DNA of 64,000 bases from Parcubacteria group bacterium (GTDB lineage: Bacteria > Patescibacteriota > Patescibacteriia > Patescibacteriales > GWC2-42-12): positions 3,306 to 67,305 of the forward strand of contig JACPHD010000020.1 of NCBI GenBank assembly GCA_016188785.1, written 5' to 3'. A model generated the notes under the pieces. That model was not told where the DNA came from, did not search any database, and was given only the letters and a program-made list of their open reading frames with translations. The position numbers and the translations under genes were made by a program. Positions 4,787 to 61,691 of the stretch are shown here, one piece after another (the stretch's first letter is position 1; each line of letters opens with the position of its first letter).

Positions 4787-4888
4787 GTAAGCCGCAGAAA
4801 ATACTTATTTTCTCACTGCGGAACCCCCCGCACTAAATGCGGAGTCAAACAGTCATCGTTTCAAAAATAAGCATTTTCTGCGGCTTAC
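4787..4888. ncRNA. 102-nt conserved-core/covarying-stem motif, copy A (candidate structured RNA or structured DNA site)
   Basis: A 23-bp outer stem (4787-4809 / 4866-4888, one A-C mismatch) encloses the core ATTTTCTCACTGCGGAAC...hairpin...TCAAACAGTCATCGTTTCAAAA. A second copy at 60050-60151 has the same core but a completely different, still complementary stem. An extra outer pairing joins 4767-4781 with 4907-4921. Confidence 0.45.
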
Positions 4889-5727: not shown

Positions 5728-5903
5728 GTCATTGCGAGGACCTTAATTTTAAATTGTCATTGCGGGCTCCCGCCCGCCTCGCAAGCGAAGCGTTGCGGGC
5801 GCGGTGACCCGCAATCCAGGACGATGGGAATATTGACCAACATGGTTTTTCTGGATTCCTGCTTTCGCAGGAATGACGAAAGTAATTTACTCTTCGCAAT
5901 GAC
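5728..5903. repeat. cluster of GTCATTGCG/GGAATGAC TIR-type palindromic repeats with a nested GC-rich CGCAAGC palindrome
   Basis: GTCATTGCGAG (5728), GTCATTGCGGG...CCCGCCCGCCTCGCAAGCGAAGCGTTGCGGGC...CCCGCAATCCAGG, CTGGATTCCTGCTTTCGCAGGAATGAC, and CTTCGCAATGAC (ends 5903). The same words recur at 12 or more other loci. Confidence 0.85.
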
Positions 5904-12493: not shown

Positions 12494-12592
12494 TCTAATA
12501 ATACGAATTACGAATTTGTTACGAATTTACAAATACTGTCATAAATGTTTTGTTTAATTTCGTAAATTCGTAAAGGATTTGTAATTCGTATA
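12494..12592. repeat. AT-rich heptamer-tiled palindrome (ACGAATT/TTCGTAA words) after murC
   Basis: ATACGAATTACGAATTTGTTACGAATTTACAAAT ... ATTTCGTAAATTCGTAAAGGATTTGTAATTCGTAT form inverted arms. Confidence 0.75.
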
Positions 12593-12595
12593 TTT

Positions 12596-14386
12596 ATGAA
12601 AGAAAAATTAAACTTAAAATTAGATAAAAGGCCGGTTAAGATGCGGCAATTTTGGCGAAGATTGTGGCGGCTGATCGCGCCAACTCATAAGCAAATTATT
12701 TATTTGTTTATTTTAATCGCGGCTTATGAAATTTTTAAATTTGTCGGGCCGTATTTGCTTAAAAAAATTATTGATTTGATCACTGATTTTAAGCCCGAGC
12801 ATATAAAGAATATATTATTTTTTATATTTTTAATTTTAATTTTTGATTTAGTAGTGGCTATAATTGATTATTTCGCGGATAAAGAAAGTTTTAAGATATT
12901 AGCTGAAGTGGAAAGATACTTATCGGTTAACGCTCAGGAAAAAATGGTCAGGCTGGGCCTGGCTTATCATGAAAGAGAAAATACCGGCAATAAAATATTT
13001 AAAATCAGGCGCGGCATTGATAAAATAATTGAACTGTTGATGAATTCATTTTTTGAAGTCGGTCCGACCGTAATTCAGGTTATCCTTACCGCCATCATCA
13101 TGTTTTTTGTGGACTGGCGTTTTGGCTTGATTTTTTCTTTATTCGCGCCGCTGTTCGCCTGGCTGACCGCCAAACTGAATTTAGAAATTAGCCCTTTGCG
13201 CAAATTCCGGCATGACAGGTATGAAGAAGCGGCCGGTAAAATGGCCCAGACTATTATCAATATCAATACGGTAAAATCGTTCGTCCATGAAGAGCGGGAA
13301 ATAAAAGAATACGGCGCCATCGAGCAGAAAACTAAGCGAGTGGCTTTGTTTGAACATTTTAAAATGCTGAAATTTAATTTTTCCCGGATTATGGTAATAA
13401 CTTTAGGCCGGATTTCAATTATACTGTTCGGCGTTTATTTGGCCTGGCAGGGCAGTATCACTGTCGGCAGTCTGGTTTTTATTATTACCATTTCGGAAAA
13501 AGCTTTAATTTCTTTGTTTAGAATTTCCCGGCTGTATGACCGGATTATGGATTCAAGCGAAGCTATTGATCTGCTGTATAAATTAAATCGCGAAGCGCCG
13601 GACATAGTTAATCCCGAACAGGGCCTTAAAGTTAAAGGGCTTAAAGGCGCGGTTGAATTTAAGCAAGTTGATTTTATCTATCGCCATAGCAAAGTAAAAG
13701 CGCTTGACCGGGTAAGTTTTAAGATCAATGCCGGCGGTTTTACGGCTTTGGTCGGTCCGTCGGGCGGCGGCAAGACCACGGTGGCGCGCCTGATTTACCG
13801 CCACTACGATCCGGCTTCGGGCGCGGTCCTGCTTGATGGCAAAAATTTAACCGAATATGATTTGTACGGCTTTAGAAAATTCATGGCTATTGTGCCGCAA
13901 GAGGTGGAAATTTTTGATTCCAGCGCTAAAGACAATATCGCTTACGCCAGGCCGGATGCGAGTTTTAGGGAAATTACCGCCGCGGCTAAAATCGCCAATG
14001 CCGCGGAATTCATTGAAAAATTAGCTCAAGGCTATAATACTTTAGTGGGCGAGCGGGGCATAAAACTTTCCGGCGGACAAAGACAGCGCCTCGGCATCGC
14101 CCGGGCCGTACTGGCTAATCCGAAAATTTTAATTTTTGATGAAGCCACCTCTAATCTGGACTCTTACAGCGAGAAATTAATTCAAGAAGCTTTAAGTAAA
14201 ATCAGCCGCGGCCGAACGGTTATCGTGATCGCCCATCGGTTGAGTACAATTCAGCAAGCCGATAAAATAATCGTTTTGGAAAACGGCCAGGTGGCGGAGC
14301 AAGGCAGCCATCATGAACTTGCTAAAATAAACGGCGGTTTATATAAAAAATTGTTAAATCTCCAGCGATTGGGGGATATCAAGTAG
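12596..14386 (+). CDS. ABC transporter, fused permease/ATP-binding protein (MsbA-like exporter)
   Basis: 596 aa. Six-TM N-terminal domain, Walker A GPSGGGKTT, LSGGQRQR signature, and Walker B ILIFDEATS. Confidence 0.9.
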   Translation: MKEKLNLKLDKRPVKMRQFWRRLWRLIAPTHKQIIYLFILIAAYEIFKFVGPYLLKKIIDLITDFKPEHIKNILFFIFLILIFDLVVAIIDYFADKESFKILAEVERYLSVNAQEKMVRLGLAYHERENTGNKIFKIRRGIDKIIELLMNSFFEVGPTVIQVILTAIIMFFVDWRFGLIFSLFAPLFAWLTAKLNLEISPLRKFRHDRYEEAAGKMAQTIININTVKSFVHEEREIKEYGAIEQKTKRVALFEHFKMLKFNFSRIMVITLGRISIILFGVYLAWQGSITVGSLVFIITISEKALISLFRISRLYDRIMDSSEAIDLLYKLNREAPDIVNPEQGLKVKGLKGAVEFKQVDFIYRHSKVKALDRVSFKINAGGFTALVGPSGGGKTTVARLIYRHYDPASGAVLLDGKNLTEYDLYGFRKFMAIVPQEVEIFDSSAKDNIAYARPDASFREITAAAKIANAAEFIEKLAQGYNTLVGERGIKLSGGQRQRLGIARAVLANPKILIFDEATSNLDSYSEKLIQEALSKISRGRTVIVIAHRLSTIQQADKIIVLENGQVAEQGSHHELAKINGGLYKKLLNLQRLGDIK

Positions 14387-16976: not shown

Positions 16977-16989
16977 GGTTTTATATGGA

Positions 16990-17050
16990 CCCCGTTAGAT
17001 AAAATATAAGTTTAACGGCGGTCATAAATATATGAAGATATCTAACGGGG
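16990..17050. repeat. CCCCGTTAGA...TCTAACGGGG hairpin element, copy 1 (overlaps the hrcA start)
   Basis: Arms CCCCGTTAGAT / ATCTAACGGGG with a 39-nt interior. The annotated hrcA ATG (17032) lies inside it. Confidence 0.8.
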
Positions 17051-17745
17051 TGGATAAACGCAAGGAATTGATACTGAAAACCATTATTAAAGAGCATATT
17101 AAAACCGCTTTGCCGGTCGGCTCAGAAGGCTTAGTTGATAAGTATAATTTAGACATTTCTTCGGCCACGGTCAGAAACGAAATGGCCGAACTGGAACAAT
17201 CCGGCTATATTGCCCAGCCGCACACTTCAGCCGGCCGCATACCTACGGAAAAGGCTTATAATTTCTACTTAGAAAATTTAAGCGAAAAAAATTTAAGCCA
17301 GGCCGAGGTTAAGCAGTTTGAGAAGTTATTGGCTAAAAAAAATGAAATCAGTTTTAAGCAGGCGGCTAAAGATATGGCGAAAATTTCTGACAACGCGGTT
17401 TTTTGGGCCTTTCATAAGCATAATCTTTATTACACCGGCATTTCTAATCTCCTGCATCAGCCGGAGTTTTCCCAAACCGGTTTGATCTATGATATTTCCG
17501 AAGTGATTGACCGGGTTGATGAAATTATCGGGCAGATTTTTAATGATTTGAAGTTCGGGCCGCAAATTATGCTGGGTTCAAAAAATCCGTTTAGCCCGCA
17601 TTGCGGCGCGGTTTTAGCCAAGTATCGGCTTAATGATAATATCGGCTTAGTCGGCATTTTAGGCCCGGTCAGGATGAATTATGAAAAAAATTTGGCCTTG
17701 ATAAAATTTATAAATAATATATTAATGGACCCCGTTAGAAGTTAA
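17032..17745 (+). CDS. hrcA: heat-inducible transcription repressor HrcA (short form)
   Basis: 237 aa. N-terminal wHTH with PVGSEGL...SSATVRNEMAELEQSGYIAQPHTSAGRIPTEKAY. A CIRCE operator lies upstream. Both termini overlap repeat elements. Confidence 0.85.
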   Translation: MKISNGVDKRKELILKTIIKEHIKTALPVGSEGLVDKYNLDISSATVRNEMAELEQSGYIAQPHTSAGRIPTEKAYNFYLENLSEKNLSQAEVKQFEKLLAKKNEISFKQAAKDMAKISDNAVFWAFHKHNLYYTGISNLLHQPEFSQTGLIYDISEVIDRVDEIIGQIFNDLKFGPQIMLGSKNPFSPHCGAVLAKYRLNDNIGLVGILGPVRMNYEKNLALIKFINNILMDPVRS

Positions 17746-17823: not shown

Positions 17824-18762
17824 ATGACGGAAGAAAAAGAGATTAATAATTTTGGTTGTAAGTACGCTATTAGCGGCGCCAGCGCGTTTATTTTTAATGA
17901 GCAAGGCAAATTATTTTTAACCAGATCGCCGAAATGGAATAATTTATGGGTGGTCCATGGCGGCAAAGTTGAATTTGGCGAGAGTTTAGAGGAGGCTTTA
18001 AAAAGGGAAATTAAAGAAGAAACCAATTTATCTATAAGAGATATCAGATATTTTATAACAGTAGAATTAAATAGAACCGAAGCGAGGCCTGATCTGCATA
18101 TGGTGGTGAATGAATATATCGCGCTAACCAGCGATAGCGAGGTAAAATTAAATAATGAACATAGCGAATTTGATTGGCGTACGCCTGAAGACTGGCTTAA
18201 AGAAAAAGATTTATATCCTAATGTCAGAGAGGCAATTGAATATTATTTAAATGAATTTTTACCTAAACAAGACTGTGAAAATTTATATAAGCGCGCTTTA
18301 GCCGATTATCAAAATTTATTAAAACAAACGGCTAAAGAAAAAATGCAATTCGCGGCTTACGCCAATGAGCAGATGTTAAGAGAAATTTTGCCGGTGTATG
18401 ATCATTTAAAATTAGCCATGGAGCATCATACCGCGTCCGCAACGCCTTGCCACGCCTGCCTTGCAAGCAAGGCATTGCGGGCAGGCTTGCGAGACGGGCG
18501 GGACGGCGAGTCAGCCGACGACTGGCTTAAAGGCGTAGAGTATGTGGTTAAGCAATTTAAAGATGTTTTGGAAAAAAGCGGCATTGAAGAGATAAAAATT
18601 GAAGATAAAAAATTTGACCATAATTTAATGGAGGCGTTAAATAGCGAAGAAACCGATGACCAAAATCTTGACGGCCAAGTGGCCAGACAGATTAAAGCCG
18701 GCTATAAGCTGAACGGGAAAATTATTGAGCCGGTTAAGGTGGTGGTATATAAGTTGAAATAA
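17824..18762 (+). CDS. grpE: NUDIX hydrolase domain fused to nucleotide exchange factor GrpE
   Basis: 312-aa continuous ORF. The N-terminal half carries a NUDIX box, GGKVEFGESLEEALKREIKEETNL. The C-terminal half is GrpE-like (LREILPVYDHLKLA...GYKLNGKIIEPVKVVV). A GC-rich palindrome is inserted in-frame at ~18431-18510. Confidence 0.8.
   Translation: MTEEKEINNFGCKYAISGASAFIFNEQGKLFLTRSPKWNNLWVVHGGKVEFGESLEEALKREIKEETNLSIRDIRYFITVELNRTEARPDLHMVVNEYIALTSDSEVKLNNEHSEFDWRTPEDWLKEKDLYPNVREAIEYYLNEFLPKQDCENLYKRALADYQNLLKQTAKEKMQFAAYANEQMLREILPVYDHLKLAMEHHTASATPCHACLASKALRAGLRDGRDGESADDWLKGVEYVVKQFKDVLEKSGIEEIKIEDKKFDHNLMEALNSEETDDQNLDGQVARQIKAGYKLNGKIIEPVKVVVYKLK
18431..18510. repeat. GC-rich palindromic element in-frame inside grpE
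   Basis: CCGCGTCCGCAACGCCTTGCCACGCCTGCCTTGCAAGCAAGGCATTGCGGGCAGGCTTGCGAGACGGGCGGGACGGCG. GC content is far above that of the flanking gene. It is related to the CGCAAGC/GCTTGCG family. Confidence 0.7.
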
Positions 18763-18876
18763 TTTTCAATTTTCAATGATCAATTTTCAATGAATGACCA
18801 ATTATCAAATTTTCAATTGAAAATTATAATATTGGAAATTGTTTGAAAATTGGAAATTGATAATTGAAAATTGAAC
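18763..18876. repeat. AT-rich heptamer-tiled palindrome (TTTTCAA/TTGAAAA words) after grpE
   Basis: Symmetric about TTTTCAATTGAAAA. The same TTTTCAA tiling occurs in-frame inside miaB. Confidence 0.8.
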
Positions 18877-45626: not shown

Positions 45627-45713
45627 AGTTTCATACTACAATGGCTGGCCGGTTTAAGCAAGAGCGATTTTTCTTGCCATTTCTAATGTTATATGTTATT
45701 TTAATAATGTTAA

Positions 45714-45763
45714 CCCCGTTAAATCCCAATTATTATTGGGGCGTAAAGCATATTTTAACGGGG
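45714..45763. repeat. CCCCGTTAAA...TTTAACGGGG hairpin element, copy 3
   Basis: Arms TTAACCCCGTTAAA / TTTAACGGGGTTAA with a 30-nt interior. Confidence 0.8.
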
Positions 45764-45788
45764 TTAATCAATCGCTAAATGCGGTTTC

Positions 45789-45850
45789 GCGCTGTTACCG
45801 CGCCCGCTAACGCCTAAGCGTAGCGATGGCGGGCGGGGCTCAGTTGGCAG
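45789..45850 (+). pseudogene. tRNA-Lys 5' fragment (22 tRNA nt, 26-nt repeat with the 5' TTTC flank) interrupted by a 40-nt GC-rich palindrome
   Basis: GCGCTGTTA (45789-45797) plus GCTCAGTTGGCAG (45838-45850) equals the first 22 nt of the tRNA at 46106, and the preceding TTTC is also shared. The insert at 45798-45837 is CCGCGCCCGCTAACGCCTAAGCGTAGCGATGGCGGGCGGG. Confidence 0.8.
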
Positions 45851-45859
45851 GCAAAGTAT

Positions 45860-46096
45860 ATGTATTATACTTATGTACTAATCAGTATAAAAGATAAAAA
45901 ATTATATATTGGGTTTACTAATGATTTAAGCAAAAGGTTTCTTGAACATCAGAATGGCCAAGTAAATTCCACAAGAGATAGAAGACCATTAAAATTAGTA
46001 TATTATGAGGCTTGCCATGATAAATATAAAGCCTTAGGCAGGGAAAAATATTTTAAAACAGGTTTTGGCAGAAAGTTTTTAGAAAATAGAATATAA
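45860..46096 (+). CDS. small GIY-YIG nuclease-domain protein
   Basis: 78 aa. YYTYVLIS...KLYIGFTNDLSKRFLEHQNG...RPLKLVYYE is the GIY-YIG (URI) signature. Confidence 0.85.
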   Translation: MYYTYVLISIKDKKLYIGFTNDLSKRFLEHQNGQVNSTRDRRPLKLVYYEACHDKYKALGREKYFKTGFGRKFLENRI

Positions 46097-46105
46097 TATA
46101 ATTTC

Positions 46106-46181
46106 GCGCTGTTAGCTCAGTTGGCAGAGCAGCTCCCTTTTAAGGAGAAGGTCACTGGTTCGAATCCAGTACAGCGCACCA
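46106..46181 (+). tRNA. tRNA-Lys (anticodon UUU), CCA encoded
   Basis: The cloverleaf was read manually. Acceptor GCGCTGT/ACAGCGC, D arm GCTCAGTTGGCAGAGC, anticodon loop CTTTTAA, T arm ACTGGTTCGAATCCAGT, and terminal ACCA. Confidence 0.9.
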
Positions 46182-46182
46182 A

Positions 46183-47340
46183 ATGAAAGATCAGGAATCT
46201 AGAAAAGTTTTAAAGATTTTCGGCTGGGCTTCGTTTTTAAACGATTTTGGCTCGGACATAATTTTTCCTTTGTGGCCGATATTTCTGACTTCAGTGTTAG
46301 GCGCCAATATGGCGGTTTTAGGTTTTATTGACGGCCTGGGTGACGCTATAGTTTCTATAGCTCAAGCTGTTGCCGGCTATCTGGCTGACAAAACCGGCAA
46401 AAGAAAAATTTTTGTCTGGCTGGGCTATGTTTTTGCCGGCCTGGCCCGCCTGGGTTACGCGCTAGCGCCGGCTTGGCAATATCTTATTCCGTTTCGCGTC
46501 TTAGATCGGGCCGGGAAAATGCGCGGCGCGCCCCGGGACGCTATTATCGCGGATATTTCTACCGCTGAAAATCGGGGCCGGAATTTCGGCTATTTAAGAA
46601 TGATGGATAATTTAGGCGCGGTTGGCGGCGTGATTTTTACTATTTTATTTTTTAAGTATTTAGGTTATCGCCATATTTTTCTGTTGGCCGCTCTGCCATC
46701 GTTGGCTGGCGCGCTTCTTGTTTGGCGCTCGATAAATGAGAATTTAGCCGTTGACAAAAAGATTTTTAAAGGCATCAGGTTTAGTGATTTTCACCGTGAT
46801 ATGAAATTATATTTGCTACTTAGCGCGGTTTTCGCCTTAGCTTCTTTTAGCTATTCGTTTTTACTTATTTTTGCCGAGCAAGCCGGCTTCGCGGTTGTTG
46901 TCATACCGGTTTTGTATTTAGCCTATAACATCGTGGCCTCGCTGGTCTCTTTGCCGTTCGGCAAATTAGCCGATAAAATAAATCGCCGAACCGTGCTTCT
47001 CTTATCGTTTTTCTTTTGGCTATTGGTTTGCGCGGTTTTTATTTATTTTCATAATCCGGTAGCTATGGTTATAGCTTTTTTACTATACGGACTGCATTTA
47101 GGCGCGATTGAGCCGGTGCAGAAAGCGCTAGTGTCTGAACTGTCAGTATCTGAATTTAGAGCCAGCACTTTAGGCAGTTTTCAGATGGTGGTAGGATTAG
47201 CGGCCTTGCCCGCTTCTTTAATTGCCGGTCTGCTCTGGGATAAAGTTAATTTAGCCGCGCCCTTTTATTTTTCCGCGGCCTTAACTATAATAGCTATAAT
47301 AATGCTCTTATTCGTTAAAGAAAAAAGAGTTGCTGTTTAA
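46183..47340 (+). CDS. MFS transporter
   Basis: 385 aa with ~12 TM segments and an MFS-like motif, LADKTGKRKI, between TM2 and TM3. Confidence 0.85.
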   Translation: MKDQESRKVLKIFGWASFLNDFGSDIIFPLWPIFLTSVLGANMAVLGFIDGLGDAIVSIAQAVAGYLADKTGKRKIFVWLGYVFAGLARLGYALAPAWQYLIPFRVLDRAGKMRGAPRDAIIADISTAENRGRNFGYLRMMDNLGAVGGVIFTILFFKYLGYRHIFLLAALPSLAGALLVWRSINENLAVDKKIFKGIRFSDFHRDMKLYLLLSAVFALASFSYSFLLIFAEQAGFAVVVIPVLYLAYNIVASLVSLPFGKLADKINRRTVLLLSFFFWLLVCAVFIYFHNPVAMVIAFLLYGLHLGAIEPVQKALVSELSVSEFRASTLGSFQMVVGLAALPASLIAGLLWDKVNLAAPFYFSAALTIIAIIMLLFVKEKRVAV

Positions 47341-47351
47341 GTAGTTTATAA

Positions 47352-47567
47352 GCCACCCTAGCTCAGTTGGTAGAGCAACGGTTTTGCCCGCCCGCCTCGC
47401 AAGCGAAGCGTTGCGGGCAGGCCCGCCCGCCTTGACATGCCGAAGTAGCTCAATGGTAGAGCAACGGTTTTGTAAACCGTAGGTTACCGGTTCAAATCCG
47501 GTCTTCGGCTCAAGGCATGTCGGGCGCGGTAAACCGTAGGTCGTCGGTCCGAATCCGACGGGTGGCT
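47352..47567 (+). tRNA. tRNA-Thr(UGU) outer gene, interrupted in the anticodon loop by a 143-bp insert (halves 47352-47386 and 47530-47567)
   Basis: The joined halves give acceptor GCCACCC/GGGTGGC and D arm GCTCAGTTGGTAGAGC. The anticodon arm is ACGGT-TTTG|TAA-ACCGT. The T arm GTCGG-TCCGAAT-CCGAC has an unusual C at position 55. Confidence 0.7.
47439..47510 (+). tRNA. tRNA-Thr (anticodon UGU), intact, nested inside the outer tRNA-Thr gene
   Basis: Acceptor GCCGAAG/CTTCGGC, D arm GCTCAATGGTAGAGC, anticodon arm ACGGT-TTTGTAA-ACCGT, and T arm ACCGG-TTCAAAT-CCGGT. No CCA is encoded. Confidence 0.9.
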
Positions 47568-47577
47568 CTTTTTTAAT

Positions 47578-48948
47578 ATGATGAAGACTTACAAAATTTA
47601 TACTTTAGGCTGTAAGGTCAATCAATATGATTCAGGCAAGCTGTCCGCCCAGCTTCAGGCAGCCGGATTAGTTATGGCGGGTAAGCAAGCTGATCTGGCC
47701 ATAATCAACAGCTGTGCCGTGACTAAAACCGCCATGATAAAAAGCGGACGGATGATTAGATCTGCTAAAAAGGAAAATCCAGGGGCGAAAATTGCGTTAA
47801 TTGGTTGCTGGGTTAGAGCTTCTGAAACTAAACTTGCGGGGGTAGATTTTGTAATCGGAGGCAAAGAAATTATTAAACAGATAAATAGAATTATGAATTA
47901 TGAATCAGGAATTAGGAATAAAATTCAAAATCCAAATAATAAAAATAATAAAATAATTATAAATAGTGATAAATCTCGTTATTTTATAAAAATTCAGGAT
48001 GGCTGTGAGCAGTTTTGCAGTTATTGCATTATTCCGTACGCCCGTGGCGGACTAAAAAGCCGGGGAGAGGCGGAAGTTATTGGCGAGGTTGAGCAGGCGG
48101 TAAAAGCCGGCTATGGCGAAATTGTTTTGTCCGGTATTCATTTGGGGCTATACGGAAAAGAAAGTCAACTGCTATATTCTGTCATTCCGGCCTCCGAGCC
48201 GCCCCGCAAAATGCGGGGTGGATTGCGGATCACCCGCCCGTACCGAACGGGTACGTTCGGGCGGGAGCCCGCAATGACAAATTATTATAATGGCGCTCGT
48301 GATGAAAACTTGGCCAGCCTTTTAAAAAAATTAGTTAAACTTAAAAATTTAGGCCGGATCAGGTTGAGTTCTATTGAAATTACCGAAGTAAGCGATGAAT
48401 TGATTGAACTAATAAAAAACAGCGGCAAAATCTGCCGCCAGCTGCATCTGCCGCTCCAGTCCGGTTCGGATAAAATTTTAAAACTAATGAACCGGCCTTA
48501 TGATATGAATTATTTTAAAAATAAAATTAAACAAATCAGGCGAGTTCTGCCGGATATGGCTATTACTACCGATGTCATCGTCGGTTTTCCCGGAGAAAGC
48601 GAAAAAGATTTTCGCGCTACGGAAAAATTTATCAGACAAATAAAATTCAGCCGTTTGCATGTTTTTCCCTTTTCCGCTCAGGAAAAAACGTCGGCCGCGA
48701 AAATGTCCGGACAAGTTAAGGAAAAAATAAAAAAGCGCCGCGCTGATTTATTGAGAAAGTTAAATTTGAAGTTGATGGCAGATTATAAAAATAAATTTAA
48801 AGGCCGAGACCTGAAAATCGCGGTCGAGCAGATCAAACAAAATAAAGTTATGGGCAAAACCGAGTATTATTTTGATGTTTCAGCCGATAAGAAAAGTTTG
48901 AAAAATAAAAATATTAGAGTAGGGCAGATTATCAAGATAAAAATTTGA
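47578..48948 (+). CDS. mtaB: MtaB-like radical SAM methylthiotransferase with two in-frame repeat insertions
   Basis: 456 aa. TLGCKVNQYDS N-terminus, radical SAM motif CEQFCSYCIIPYARG, and a TRAM-like C-terminus. Insertions at 47888-47945 and 48181-48279. Confidence 0.85.
   Translation: MMKTYKIYTLGCKVNQYDSGKLSAQLQAAGLVMAGKQADLAIINSCAVTKTAMIKSGRMIRSAKKENPGAKIALIGCWVRASETKLAGVDFVIGGKEIIKQINRIMNYESGIRNKIQNPNNKNNKIIINSDKSRYFIKIQDGCEQFCSYCIIPYARGGLKSRGEAEVIGEVEQAVKAGYGEIVLSGIHLGLYGKESQLLYSVIPASEPPRKMRGGLRITRPYRTGTFGREPAMTNYYNGARDENLASLLKKLVKLKNLGRIRLSSIEITEVSDELIELIKNSGKICRQLHLPLQSGSDKILKLMNRPYDMNYFKNKIKQIRRVLPDMAITTDVIVGFPGESEKDFRATEKFIRQIKFSRLHVFPFSAQEKTSAAKMSGQVKEKIKKRRADLLRKLNLKLMADYKNKFKGRDLKIAVEQIKQNKVMGKTEYYFDVSADKKSLKNKNIRVGQIIKIKI
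47888..47945. repeat. heptamer tiling (GAATTAT, GAATCAG, GAATTAG...) inside mtaB
   Basis: GAATTATGAATTATGAATCAGGAATTAGGAATAAAATTCAAAATCCAAATAAT, translated as IMNYESGIRNKIQNPNN. Confidence 0.8.
48181..48279. mobile_element. GTCATTCC...CGCAATGAC TIR element (99 nt = 33 codons) in-frame inside mtaB
   Basis: GTCATTCCGGCCTCCGAGCC...CCCCGCAAAATGCGGGG...CGGGAGCCCGCAATGACA. The GC-rich block translates as VIPASEPPRKMRGGLRITRPYRTGTFGREPAMT. Confidence 0.8.
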
Positions 48949-60049: not shown

Positions 60050-60151
60050 GCAGTTGGCTGGAATCAGTAATTTTCTCGTTGCGGAACTCGCCCCGCCAAG
60101 GCGGTGCTCAAACAGTCCTCACTTCAAAAATTACTAATTCCAGCCAACTGC
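60050..60151. ncRNA. 102-nt conserved-core/covarying-stem motif, copy B
   Basis: Same length and core as 4787-4888 (ATTTTCTCGTTGCGGAAC...TCAAACAGTCCTCACTTCAAAA). The 23-bp outer stem, GCAGTTGGCTGGAATCAGTAATT/AATTACTAATTCCAGCCAACTGC, is unrelated in sequence. Confidence 0.45.
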
Positions 60152-61357: not shown

Positions 61358-61589
61358 TTGAATTTATTATTGTCATTGCGGTAGTTGCCTCCGGATTGTC
61401 ATTGCGGCCTCCGAGCCGCAATCCAGGTTTCAACGCCACGAATATTCTATTTAACAATCAACTCAACCAACCGAACTGCCTACGGGTTTAACCTGCCGCG
61501 CCCGCCATGCGAGCCGCAAGGCGAGGCGGGCGGGGATTCCCCCCGCCCCGCATTTGCGGGGCGGGGCGGGAATGACAAGAAAGAAAAGC
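61358..61589. repeat. 232-bp composite of GTCATTGCGG/GGAATGAC and GC-rich palindromic repeats bounded by a 20-bp direct repeat
   Basis: GGCTATGTTTATGTTGTAAG occurs at 61338-61357 and at 61590-61609. The interior shares GTCATTGCGGCCTCCGAGCCGCAATCCAGG and ACCGAACTGCCTACGG with the unit at 19447-19578. Confidence 0.8.
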
Positions 61590-61691
61590 GGCTATGTTTA
61601 TGTTGTAAGGAGAGGAGGGAATGAACATTGACAATTAAGTAAGTGGTGGCGAAAAAGGGAAAATTAAAAAAACAAGAAGAGGAGAAAGGCA

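Follow-up and report, generated by a model that had tools for sequence, protein, structure and literature searches.

The window analysed here is a stretch of 64,000 nt from a Parcubacteria group bacterium (GenBank assembly GCA_016188785.1, contig JACPHD010000020.1, positions 3,306 to 67,305), in which a gene for a GIY-YIG nuclease lies between a duplicated 5' fragment of tRNA-Lys(UUU) and the intact tRNA-Lys gene. Our comparison of this locus with related ones, designated by L-numbers, indicates that it is probably one copy of a widespread family of minimal selfish GIY-YIG cassettes of Patescibacteria, homing-like in behavior and located in the 5' regions of tRNA genes. Such a cassette would be reduced to a nuclease gene encoding 78 amino acids (aa) with scarcely any flanking DNA (about 250 nt of unique sequence). 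Its insertion would take place near the 5' end of tRNA genes, and now and then of transfer-messenger RNA (tmRNA) genes, with direct duplication of the 5' segment of the target. Since this segment is duplicated, an intact tRNA would be reconstituted after the stop codon of the nuclease gene and a dead stub would be left by the old promoter.

In the window, the duplicated segment is made of two pieces. The first one, TTTCGCGCTGTTA, has exactly two sites, 45785-45797 and 46102-46114 (0.24 expected in shuffled sequences with one mismatch allowed), and the second one, GCTCAGTTGGCAG, has exact sites at 45838-45850 and 46115-46127 (0.01 expected in shuffles, again allowing one mismatch). Both pairs are collinear and keep their order, being contiguous at the tRNA-Lys(UUU) gene and split in the copy located 317 nt upstream. 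As the tRNA gene was placed at 46106-46181 (ARAGORN; Rfam, 70.5 bits), the repeat corresponds to 4 nt of leader followed by tRNA nucleotides 1-22. The upstream copy begins on the forward strand with stub part A (45785-45797), an exact 13-mer repeat that comprises the leader TTTC and tRNA-Lys nt 1-9. This part is contiguous with the ancestral leader in the alignment to empty sites and therefore marks the ancestral position of the tRNA gene. It is followed by 40 nt (45798-45837) that part tRNA nt 9 from nt 10, a GC-rich hairpin element (CCGCGCCCGC...GGCGGGCGGG), hereafter hairpin H, forming a clean insert at this point. Stub part B (45838-45850, forward strand) is an exact 13-mer repeat of tRNA-Lys nt 10-22.

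The 78-codon open reading frame (ORF) lies between the two copies on the same strand (45860-46096). It matches the GIY-YIG family PF01541 (E = 4.1e-16), stops 9 nt 5' of the tRNA and is the sole GIY-YIG ORF of this kind in the window. Beyond it come the 4-nt leader and the intact tRNA-Lys (46102-46181, forward strand), moved 317 nt downstream of the ancestral position. The unique insert is about 251 nt long and contains nothing other than this ORF. No integrase or transposase was found in or adjoining the insert, the window as a whole not having been systematically scanned for integrases. A second copy of the tRNA-Lys 3' end was not found in the window, the flanking repeat being the 5' end (nt -4 to 22). 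Furthermore, an Rfam scan of the window returned only the two tRNAs and no known RNA family over the hairpin or the stub.

Loci fetched by means of the neighboring DnaB protein provide the empty sites. Nine metagenome loci (L083-L087, L089-L091 and L102; DnaB 85-92% identical) display the order dnaB, tRNA-Lys(UUU), tRNA-Thr(UGU), miaB. They have no GIY-YIG ORF, and no tRNA 5'-end copy exceeding 8 nt and no hairpin-arm motif were found in their dnaB-tRNA spacers. The spacing between dnaB and tRNA-Lys is 143-333 nt in these nine loci, versus a tRNA start 480 nt from dnaB in the window, and the tRNA-Lys of the window is nearly identical to that of the empty-site relatives. Since nine close relatives are devoid of ORF, stub and hairpin, the locus of the window is an insertion. 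L003, from a reference metagenome-assembled genome (DnaB 88-89% and GIY-YIG protein 86% identical), is filled likewise, with a hairpin in equal position and orientation. In this locus, the old leader and the promoter-like sequence continue straight into the stub, and the rebuilt tRNA retains about 9 nt of the old leader.

One conserved site is thus polymorphic for the presence of the cassette, with two filled loci (the window and L003) versus nine empty ones. In the DnaB tree, (L003,(window,(L083,(L084,L102)))), which is a neighbor-joining tree of one gene and has to be read accordingly, the filled window and L003 bracket the empty L083, L084 and L102. This interleaving of filled and empty lineages implies either a gain followed by clean loss or lateral transfer. 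Between the window and L003, the ratio of nonsynonymous to synonymous divergence (dN/dS) of the nuclease gene is 0.11, with a dS of 0.83. Therefore, the nuclease gene is maintained by purifying selection and the insertion at tRNA-Lys is not recent.

The same architecture recurs at many other RNA genes. Our sample included 80 loci of GTDB species representatives encoding relatives of the ORF, with 87 homologous ORFs. A co-oriented tRNA lies 0-200 nt downstream of 45 of them, mostly 0-20 nt past the stop codon, and the tRNA-linked cassettes span 12 amino-acid types. The tRNA-linked ORFs encode exactly 78 aa, end with ...RI-stop and are separated from the tRNA by 0-9 nt. In 18 of 32 loci, an exact match to nucleotides 1-9 of the adjacent tRNA was found within the 130 nt preceding the ORF, versus none of 866 mismatched locus pairs. 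The stub thus matches its neighboring tRNA specifically. In about 27 loci, the stub is split by a hairpin (35-60 nt), located behind nt 3-22 of the tRNA, and extends as far as nt 12-36. Among loci, the flanking duplication ranges in length from about 12 to 72 nt. Tandem units at one tRNA in L006 and L018, those of L018 having unlike hairpin types and positions, show that insertion into one tRNA has occurred repeatedly. Moreover, a tmRNA gene lies 3' of the ORF in L038 and L053. These two loci account for part of the apparently tRNA-less ORFs, several of which correspond to contig ends, to tRNAs with group I introns (L042) or to tmRNA genes.

An earlier sequence-only reading of the window had described the repeats, the hairpin split, the ORF and the 9-nt gap, and these are all in place. 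It had viewed them as the trace of a GIY-YIG cassette inserted in the D-arm of the tRNA gene with regeneration of an intact copy. Both the empty relatives and the tRNA-linked homologues support this view: relatives without the ORF are also without the repeat (nine loci, DnaB 85-92%), and the homologues of other loci show a strong association with tRNA genes and with duplications of their 5' ends.

Several loci of the sample deserve a separate description. In the tmRNA loci (L038, 4235-4639; L053, 741-1257), ORF and hairpin lie between a smpB-like coding sequence and the tmRNA gene, the 5' end of which abuts the hairpin (Rfam tmRNA, 103 and 86 bits, respectively). In L042 (4235-4512) and L022 (4040-4300), the anticodon loop of the tRNA that follows the cassette is interrupted by a group I intron, recognized with Rfam in L042 and by eye in L022; because of this intron, both tRNAs were missed by ARAGORN. 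Group I introns are already known in tRNAs of Patescibacteria (PMC13011429). L083 harbors a distant GIY-YIG paralogue (42% identity) in a mirror layout (2020-2511, in the orientation of the window): an intact foreign tRNA-Thr, 1 nt, the ORF, then the remaining 3' part of the ancestral tRNA-Thr, whose D-loop holds a small hairpin. Just upstream of it, an intact tRNA-Lys is followed by a 3' fragment of tRNA-Lys (GGTTC / two hairpins / GAATCCAGTACGGCGCACCA). Secondary GIY-YIG paralogues are located directly 3' of tRNAs in L009, L066 and L080. L001 and L002, two Logan contigs (SRR12113425/6) with the identical ORF, come to an end within about 55 nt past its stop codon, where the tRNA begins. Both assemblies may have been broken by the duplicated 5' segment of the tRNA.

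The hairpin that splits the stub belongs to a family found across many genomes, with ends CC(C/T)GCC(C/T)GC ... GC(R)GGC(R)GG, a variable self-complementary interior and both orientations. Hairpin H folds as a DNA hairpin (-15.6 kcal/mol, z = -3.05), and its interior differs between the window and L003. For 40 of the 45 tRNA-linked ORFs, a hairpin is present either in the 60 nt preceding the ORF or in the gap that separates it from the tRNA, and family members occupy the equivalent place in 36 of the 45 tRNA-linked loci. The 33 ORFs with neither tRNA nor hairpin come nearly all from other phyla. According to a detector that admits a few false positives with long spacers, 56 of the 65 hairpins of the GIY loci lie at most 150 nt from a GIY-YIG ORF, and 2 of 69 tRNAs without ORF have a hairpin within 120 nt. 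The hairpin is therefore tied to the cassette and not to tRNAs as such. Within the stub, it is found near the middle (position/length 0.51; standard deviation, SD, 0.14). The longest unbroken stub piece averages 13.3 nt versus 16.1 nt under random placement, a test weakened by the under-detection of very short pieces.

Hairpin H has about 6-8 copies in the 64 kb, including 5769-5803, 18432-18485, 47387-47421, 48233-48265 and 61497-61534. It shares conserved terminal inverted repeats and the presence of several copies with miniature inverted-repeat transposable elements. A target-site duplication was not found at hairpin H, the sequence from tRNA nt 9 through the hairpin to nt 10 being continuous with one ambiguous G at most. 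We considered the hairpin as a fixed end of the cassette and rejected this idea, since either orientation is found and tandem units with near-identical ORFs have unlike hairpins. The sequence-only reading had taken the palindrome for an incidental further split; the counts above make it a regular component. It had also linked the nuclease to the mobilization of hairpin families saturating the window. The counts lend statistical support to this speculative connection, but the GC-rich family does not saturate the window, although other inverted repeats are numerous. The window contains 63 inverted-repeat pairs with arms at most 120 nt apart, from several unrelated AT-rich families (for instance 18761-18872, 12496-12596 and 4787-4888 / 60050-60151) without relation to the GC-rich one.

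Some copies of the GC-rich hairpin are combined with other repeats. The copy at 5769-5803 sits inside another repeat family (ttgtcattgcgggc ... gacccgcaatccagg; 5729-5900), and a double GC hairpin (61497-61571) adjoins further copies of this 'gtcattgcgg' repeat (61360-61600). The copies at 5769-5803 and 47387-47421 are nearly identical, which suggests recent copying in this genome.

The nuclease itself matches PF01541 with 59.5 bits (cut-off 22.6), covering profile positions 1-74 of 78. Among 58 homologues, residues Y5, Y16, R26 and E50 are invariant and the conservation of H30 reaches at least 90%; we take these five residues to be catalytic, as their counterparts in I-TevI and UvrC. The AlphaFold model (pLDDT, predicted local distance difference test, 95.9; E2-9, E15-20, H23-31, E44-52, H55-65, H68-77) contains the beta-beta-alpha-beta-alpha GIY-YIG core and matches 1ZG2 and the Slx1, I-TevI and UvrC domains. 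The Foldseek template modeling scores are 0.63-0.71 for Slx1, 0.58 for UvrC and 0.52-0.55 for the I-TevI catalytic domain, the top matches being 1ZG2 and Slx1, and the only PDB sequence matches are the UPF0213 proteins 1ZG2 and 1YWL. The protein is closer to the UPF0213/YhbQ/Slx1 branch than to the homing-endonuclease or UvrC branches. It consists entirely of the 78-aa catalytic domain, with no extra domain and no DNA-binding module, and the group I intron endonuclease model gives 23 bits, below its 56-bit cut-off. Hence, calling it an established homing endonuclease, as in the sequence-only reading, is too strong for a catalytic-domain-only protein whose nearest relatives are UPF0213/Slx1 and not I-TevI.

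The family is large, with 6,841 representatives of 50%-identity clusters at E <= 0.001. A search of phages gave only distant and uninformative matches (<45% identity) in Rhizobium, Listeria and Staphylococcus phages. In other phyla, the homologues are 84-86 aa long and are flanked by 14-22-bp inverted repeats, (T)TTACCCYGTNAAATAA, the right one encoding the C-terminus ...KSYLTG. Such homologues were found in Deltaproteobacteria, Planctomycetes, Bacteroidales, Cloacimonadota and others (loci L039-L081). The arrangement of these repeats suggests a second mobile form of the same gene, bounded by inverted repeats, in other phyla.

The position of the ORF suggests how it could be expressed. A promoter-like site on the forward strand at 45674-45702 (TTGCCA-17-TATTTT with TG, consensus scan) would correspond to the ancestral tRNA-Lys promoter: the motif cttgcc...tatgttatttta lies 5' of tRNA-Lys in the empty-site relatives and 5' of the stub in L003. 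This site would thus be the old tRNA promoter, now located upstream of the stub. The ORF, being within the tRNA leader, would probably be read from the tRNA promoter, and RNase P would then detach it from the tRNA. The leader RNA made of stub and hairpin folds no better than shuffled sequences (z = -1.7), a result that does not support a structured regulatory leader. A second promoter-like sequence (TTGGCA-16-TAGAAT, 46065-46092, forward strand) was detected by consensus scan only, in the last codons of the ORF and 14 nt 5' of the tRNA. Its AGAAT derives from the conserved C-terminal Arg-Ile codons, and it might be an outward promoter for the tRNA of the window. As a general feature of the family, an outward promoter was rejected, since the gap between stop codon and tRNA is just 0-3 nt in several loci.

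Among the cassettes, proteins at least 78% identical share the tRNA type with one exception, and below 78% the type is scrambled. Nearest neighbors share the tRNA type in 17 of 44 cases versus 6.4 expected, and none of 2000 permutations reaches 17. The pairs L016/L037 and L026/L031 are syntenic and could be vertical. In the pair L050/L082, the neighboring host protein is 46% identical versus 73-78% for the nuclease. Furthermore, cassettes of the tRNA-Asn group are 80-84% identical in DNA and have unalignable flanks. We favor a spread between related genomes comparable to that of a free-standing homing endonuclease gene, in which the folded tRNA gene would be broken, at or close to it, and the filled allele would serve as template for repair, tRNA and flank providing the homology. 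Slx1 is a structure-specific nuclease. Given its likeness to Slx1 and the absence of a DNA-binding domain, the cassette protein would more likely recognize a DNA structure (folded tDNA, hairpins) than a long sequence. The hairpin would be a DNA substrate or a by-product of the nuclease, or it may have been selected because it breaks up the direct repeat that could delete the cassette.

Several points weigh against this homing-like reading. In L016/L037 and in L050/L082, the stub is unlike the acceptor stem of the adjacent tRNA yet conserved between genomes. This pattern would fit stub, hairpin and ORF travelling together better than a local duplication. L037 also retains a matching 3' remnant of the old tRNA downstream. 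The stub, the hairpin and the ORF can therefore be maintained together when another functional tRNA takes the place of the old one. Moreover, identical proteins present on many contigs (look-ups of P0092 and P0042) always occurred in one shared genomic context, and thus provide no direct evidence of recent jumps within a genome. As the insertion of the window is old (dS 0.83), its perfect 26/26 repeat requires gene conversion or constraint. How a catalytic domain of 78 aa would recognize a site is not obvious. In addition, given the 26-nt identity of tRNA and stub, a nuclease recognizing the tRNA 5' region would still find its target in the filled allele, unlike in classical homing immunity, and a homing-like model leaves the first, illegitimate insertion into a new tRNA type unaccounted for. 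Finally, hairpins are found in either orientation and do not accompany the ORF unchanged, which makes their mechanistic link to the nuclease uncertain.

A bolder reading, which we put forward tentatively, views the cassette as a member of a new class of autonomous mobile elements that combine an Slx1-like GIY-YIG nuclease of about 80 aa with GC-rich hairpins. Elements of this class would recognize, by their folded DNA, genes of structured RNAs with high transcription (tRNA, tmRNA, perhaps rRNA) and insert on their 5' side with a long and variable duplication and hijacking of the promoter. The class would include hairpin elements carrying replacement tRNAs, described below, as well as the inverted-repeat-bounded ORFs of other phyla, and could be a major driver of tRNA turnover in Patescibacteria.

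The cassette could instead be a passenger, ORF and hairpin being moved by machinery encoded elsewhere (an attC-like recombinase or a hairpin-specific transposase) with the nuclease as mere cargo, for instance a repair or defense enzyme. The single promoterless ORF with minimal flanks, beside an imperfect palindrome with conserved ends and variable interior, would suit such a cargo. Hairpins of the window also outnumber the ORF (6-8 versus 1), some of them being ORF-free, in another repeat and in a coding gene. Moreover, GIY-YIG enzymes hydrolyze DNA and cannot rejoin strands unaided. However, the 251-nt insert has no integrase or transposase in or beside it, the orientation of the hairpin relative to the ORF varies, a duplication of about 12 to 72 nt is unlike site-specific recombination, and hairpins cluster at GIY ORFs specifically and not at tRNAs generally. 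We therefore consider this explanation unlikely.

In a third explanation, mobility would belong primarily to the GC-rich hairpin, which inserts in tRNA 5' regions; the ORF then homes about 10 nt beside the hairpin and duplicates its segment, layouts such as that of the window arising by later deletion between repeats. Five loci (L007, L017, L032, L006 and L173), in which the ORF is flanked by two whole copies of the stub with a hairpin in each, are in line with this succession. So are L011, L014, L045, L069 and the tmRNA loci, where the hairpin lies at nt 3/4 of the functional RNA gene, its terminal GGG regenerating the RNA 5' end, and the ORF is located 30-45 nt upstream of it. Furthermore, 10-33 nt separate the right end of the hairpin from the ATG in all cases, and the part of the stub behind the hairpin averages 10 nt (SD 3.6). 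However, hairpins are rare beside ORF-less tRNAs (2/69), the empty sites have none, and a hairpin interrupting the D-arm of the only copy of a tRNA gene would be lethal prior to any rescue. These difficulties make the succession quite improbable.

That the layout is not mobile at all, stub and hairpin being a functional RNA leader or regulatory structure of a host nuclease-tRNA operon with a duplication due to local slippage, is very improbable: the conservation of stub and hairpin above that of the ORF in L016 versus L037 (62/66 nt versus 78%) and the intact 26/26 stub of the window despite its divergence from L003 would agree with it, but close relatives entirely lack the layout, which was built independently at 12 tRNA types with differing junctions, the hairpin interior is unconserved between the window and L003, and the leader folds no better than shuffled RNA.

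The tRNA-5' cassette architecture was not found described in the searchable literature, which leaves subscription journals largely outside reach, so that this absence is no proof; it appears to be widespread and so far undescribed. By analogy, the functional likeness of the homing-like cassette would be greatest to free-standing GIY-YIG homing endonuclease genes such as segB of phage T4. SegB, involved in intronless homing in the T4 tRNA gene cluster, is likewise encoded by a GIY-YIG gene located among or beside tRNA genes without an intron (PMC2330249). SegB-type genes and the cassette share presence/absence polymorphism in relatives, and in both cases repair of the break is expected to co-convert the flanking tRNA. 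Whereas SegB-type enzymes have a DNA-binding region and a defined cut sequence, the cassette protein has 78 aa and a catalytic domain only. Moreover, SegB leaves neither a duplicated tRNA 5' stub nor a hairpin, both of which are present with the cassette, and its host is a phage whereas those of the cassette are cellular Patescibacteria.

Islands that target tRNA or tmRNA genes also restore their target by a supplied copy, which results in direct repeats around the insert. However, they encode a tyrosine or serine integrase and duplicate the 3' end of the gene, whereas the cassette is about 250 nt long, integrase-free and associated with a 5'-end duplicate of about 12 to 72 nt. A classical integrase-mediated island was therefore rejected, the insert having no recombinase and the 5' end being duplicated in place of the 3' end. 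With no DNA-binding module, no integrase and a 5' duplication, the cassette lacks defining features of both homing genes and islands. For sequence and fold, the best matches are Slx1/UPF0213/YhbQ proteins (PDB 1ZG2, 1YWL, 4XLG and 7CQ3), which share the Tyr, Tyr, Arg, His and Glu positions; Slx1 differs by its partner Slx4 and its RING/PHD domain. To our knowledge, no function has been assigned to UPF0213 proteins, and mobility has not been reported for them.

The hairpins also have counterparts. GC clusters of yeast mitochondria (PMC4478555), hairpin elements of sponge mitochondria (PMC2800124) and Rickettsia palindromic elements are likewise short GC-rich hairpins dispersed in AT-rich genomes, without coding capacity. 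Their sites include in-frame positions within protein genes, comparable to that in the MiaB-like gene of the window. The hairpins of the window differ from these mitochondrial and Rickettsia palindromes by their CC(C/T)GCC(C/T)GC ends and by their clustering at one nuclease family and tRNA stubs, and some of them enclose a whole tRNA gene between their arms. In rRNA genes of the Candidate Phyla Radiation (CPR), GIY-YIG ORFs have been reported in insertion sequences that are not introns, most of the insertions being positioned either at a stem-loop's top or at its base (PMC11270868). They resemble the cassette by their phylum, by a structured RNA gene as host and by the absence of an intron. 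They lie within rRNA genes, with no tRNA association, target duplication or hairpin partner reported (PMC11270868). A palindrome standing beside a promoterless ORF may recall integron cassettes; here it is upstream of the ORF and in both orientations, and there is no cassette array.

Other elements surround the cassette in the window. A 58-nt mini-element with perfect 14-nt inverted ends (TTAACCCCGTTAAA; z = -6.06) lies at 45710-45767, between promoter and stub. It is also found at the same place in the cassette-free L084 and is a neighbor, not a part, of the cassette. Ends of the type TTAACCCCGTTAAA(T) occur in two mini-elements of the window, at 45710-45767 and 16989-17051. The core of the former, ACCCYGTTAAAT, matches inverted repeats flanking non-CPR homologues of the ORF, and the core ACCCYGTNAAAT(AA) forms the 14-22-bp inverted repeats that flank the 84-86-aa GIY-YIG homologues. 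These matches suggest that the mini-elements of the window are ORF-less derivatives of the inverted-repeat-bounded mobile GIY-YIG form.

The segment 47350-47567 contains nested tRNA genes. The outer tRNA-Thr(UGU) is split at nt 35/36 by about 145 nt, comprising the hairpin 47387-47421 and a hairpin-type arm pair (47422-47528) that encloses a complete and different tRNA-Thr(UGU) at 47439-47511. Once joined, the outer halves equal the intact tRNA-Thr of L084 and L102; therefore, the resident gene was disrupted by an element that brought its own replacement. The nested design was also observed in L097 and L091 (Thr) and in L008 (Val, D-loop). The position nt 35/36 is also the favored site of group I introns in tRNAs of the phylum (PMC13011429).

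Between the two tRNA loci, a major facilitator superfamily (MFS) transporter gene (46183-47340) begins 1 nt after the tRNA-Lys 3' end. It was not found in L003 or in any DnaB relative, where tRNA-Thr directly follows tRNA-Lys, and is thus useless as a synteny anchor. Its closer homologues include proteins named from Omnitrophica, Peregrinibacteria and archaea, and it looks like a separate acquisition at the 3' side of the tRNA. Downstream, the gene of a MiaB/MtaB-like methylthiotransferase (ORF 47578-48948) carries an in-frame insert of about 45 aa (about 48185-48320) derived from GC-rich hairpins (48199-48221 and 48231-48267). The MiaB/MtaB-like genes of relatives contain other repeat-derived inserts at the same point (...SLRGAPAT..., ...RGNDG), and that of L084 contains none. 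This point is a hot spot for palindromic repeats in a coding gene, reminiscent of Rickettsia palindromic elements.

If the nuclease drives its insertion, the cassette would be among the smallest self-mobilizing genetic units known, with about 250 nt and a catalytic domain only. It would also be a mirror image of the classic tRNA-targeting islands, with a duplication of the 5' end in place of the 3' end and no integrase. The hypothesis of a mini-nuclease that recognizes structure could moreover have practical interest. For annotation, tRNA fragments and hairpin-split tRNAs found near such ORFs are to be read as remnants of insertion and not as assembly errors. Cassettes of this family provide a possible explanation for the abundance of small genes annotated as 'GIY-YIG nuclease family protein' in Patescibacteria, and they may account for the stubs, nested tRNAs and hairpins found at the tRNA loci of these reduced genomes.

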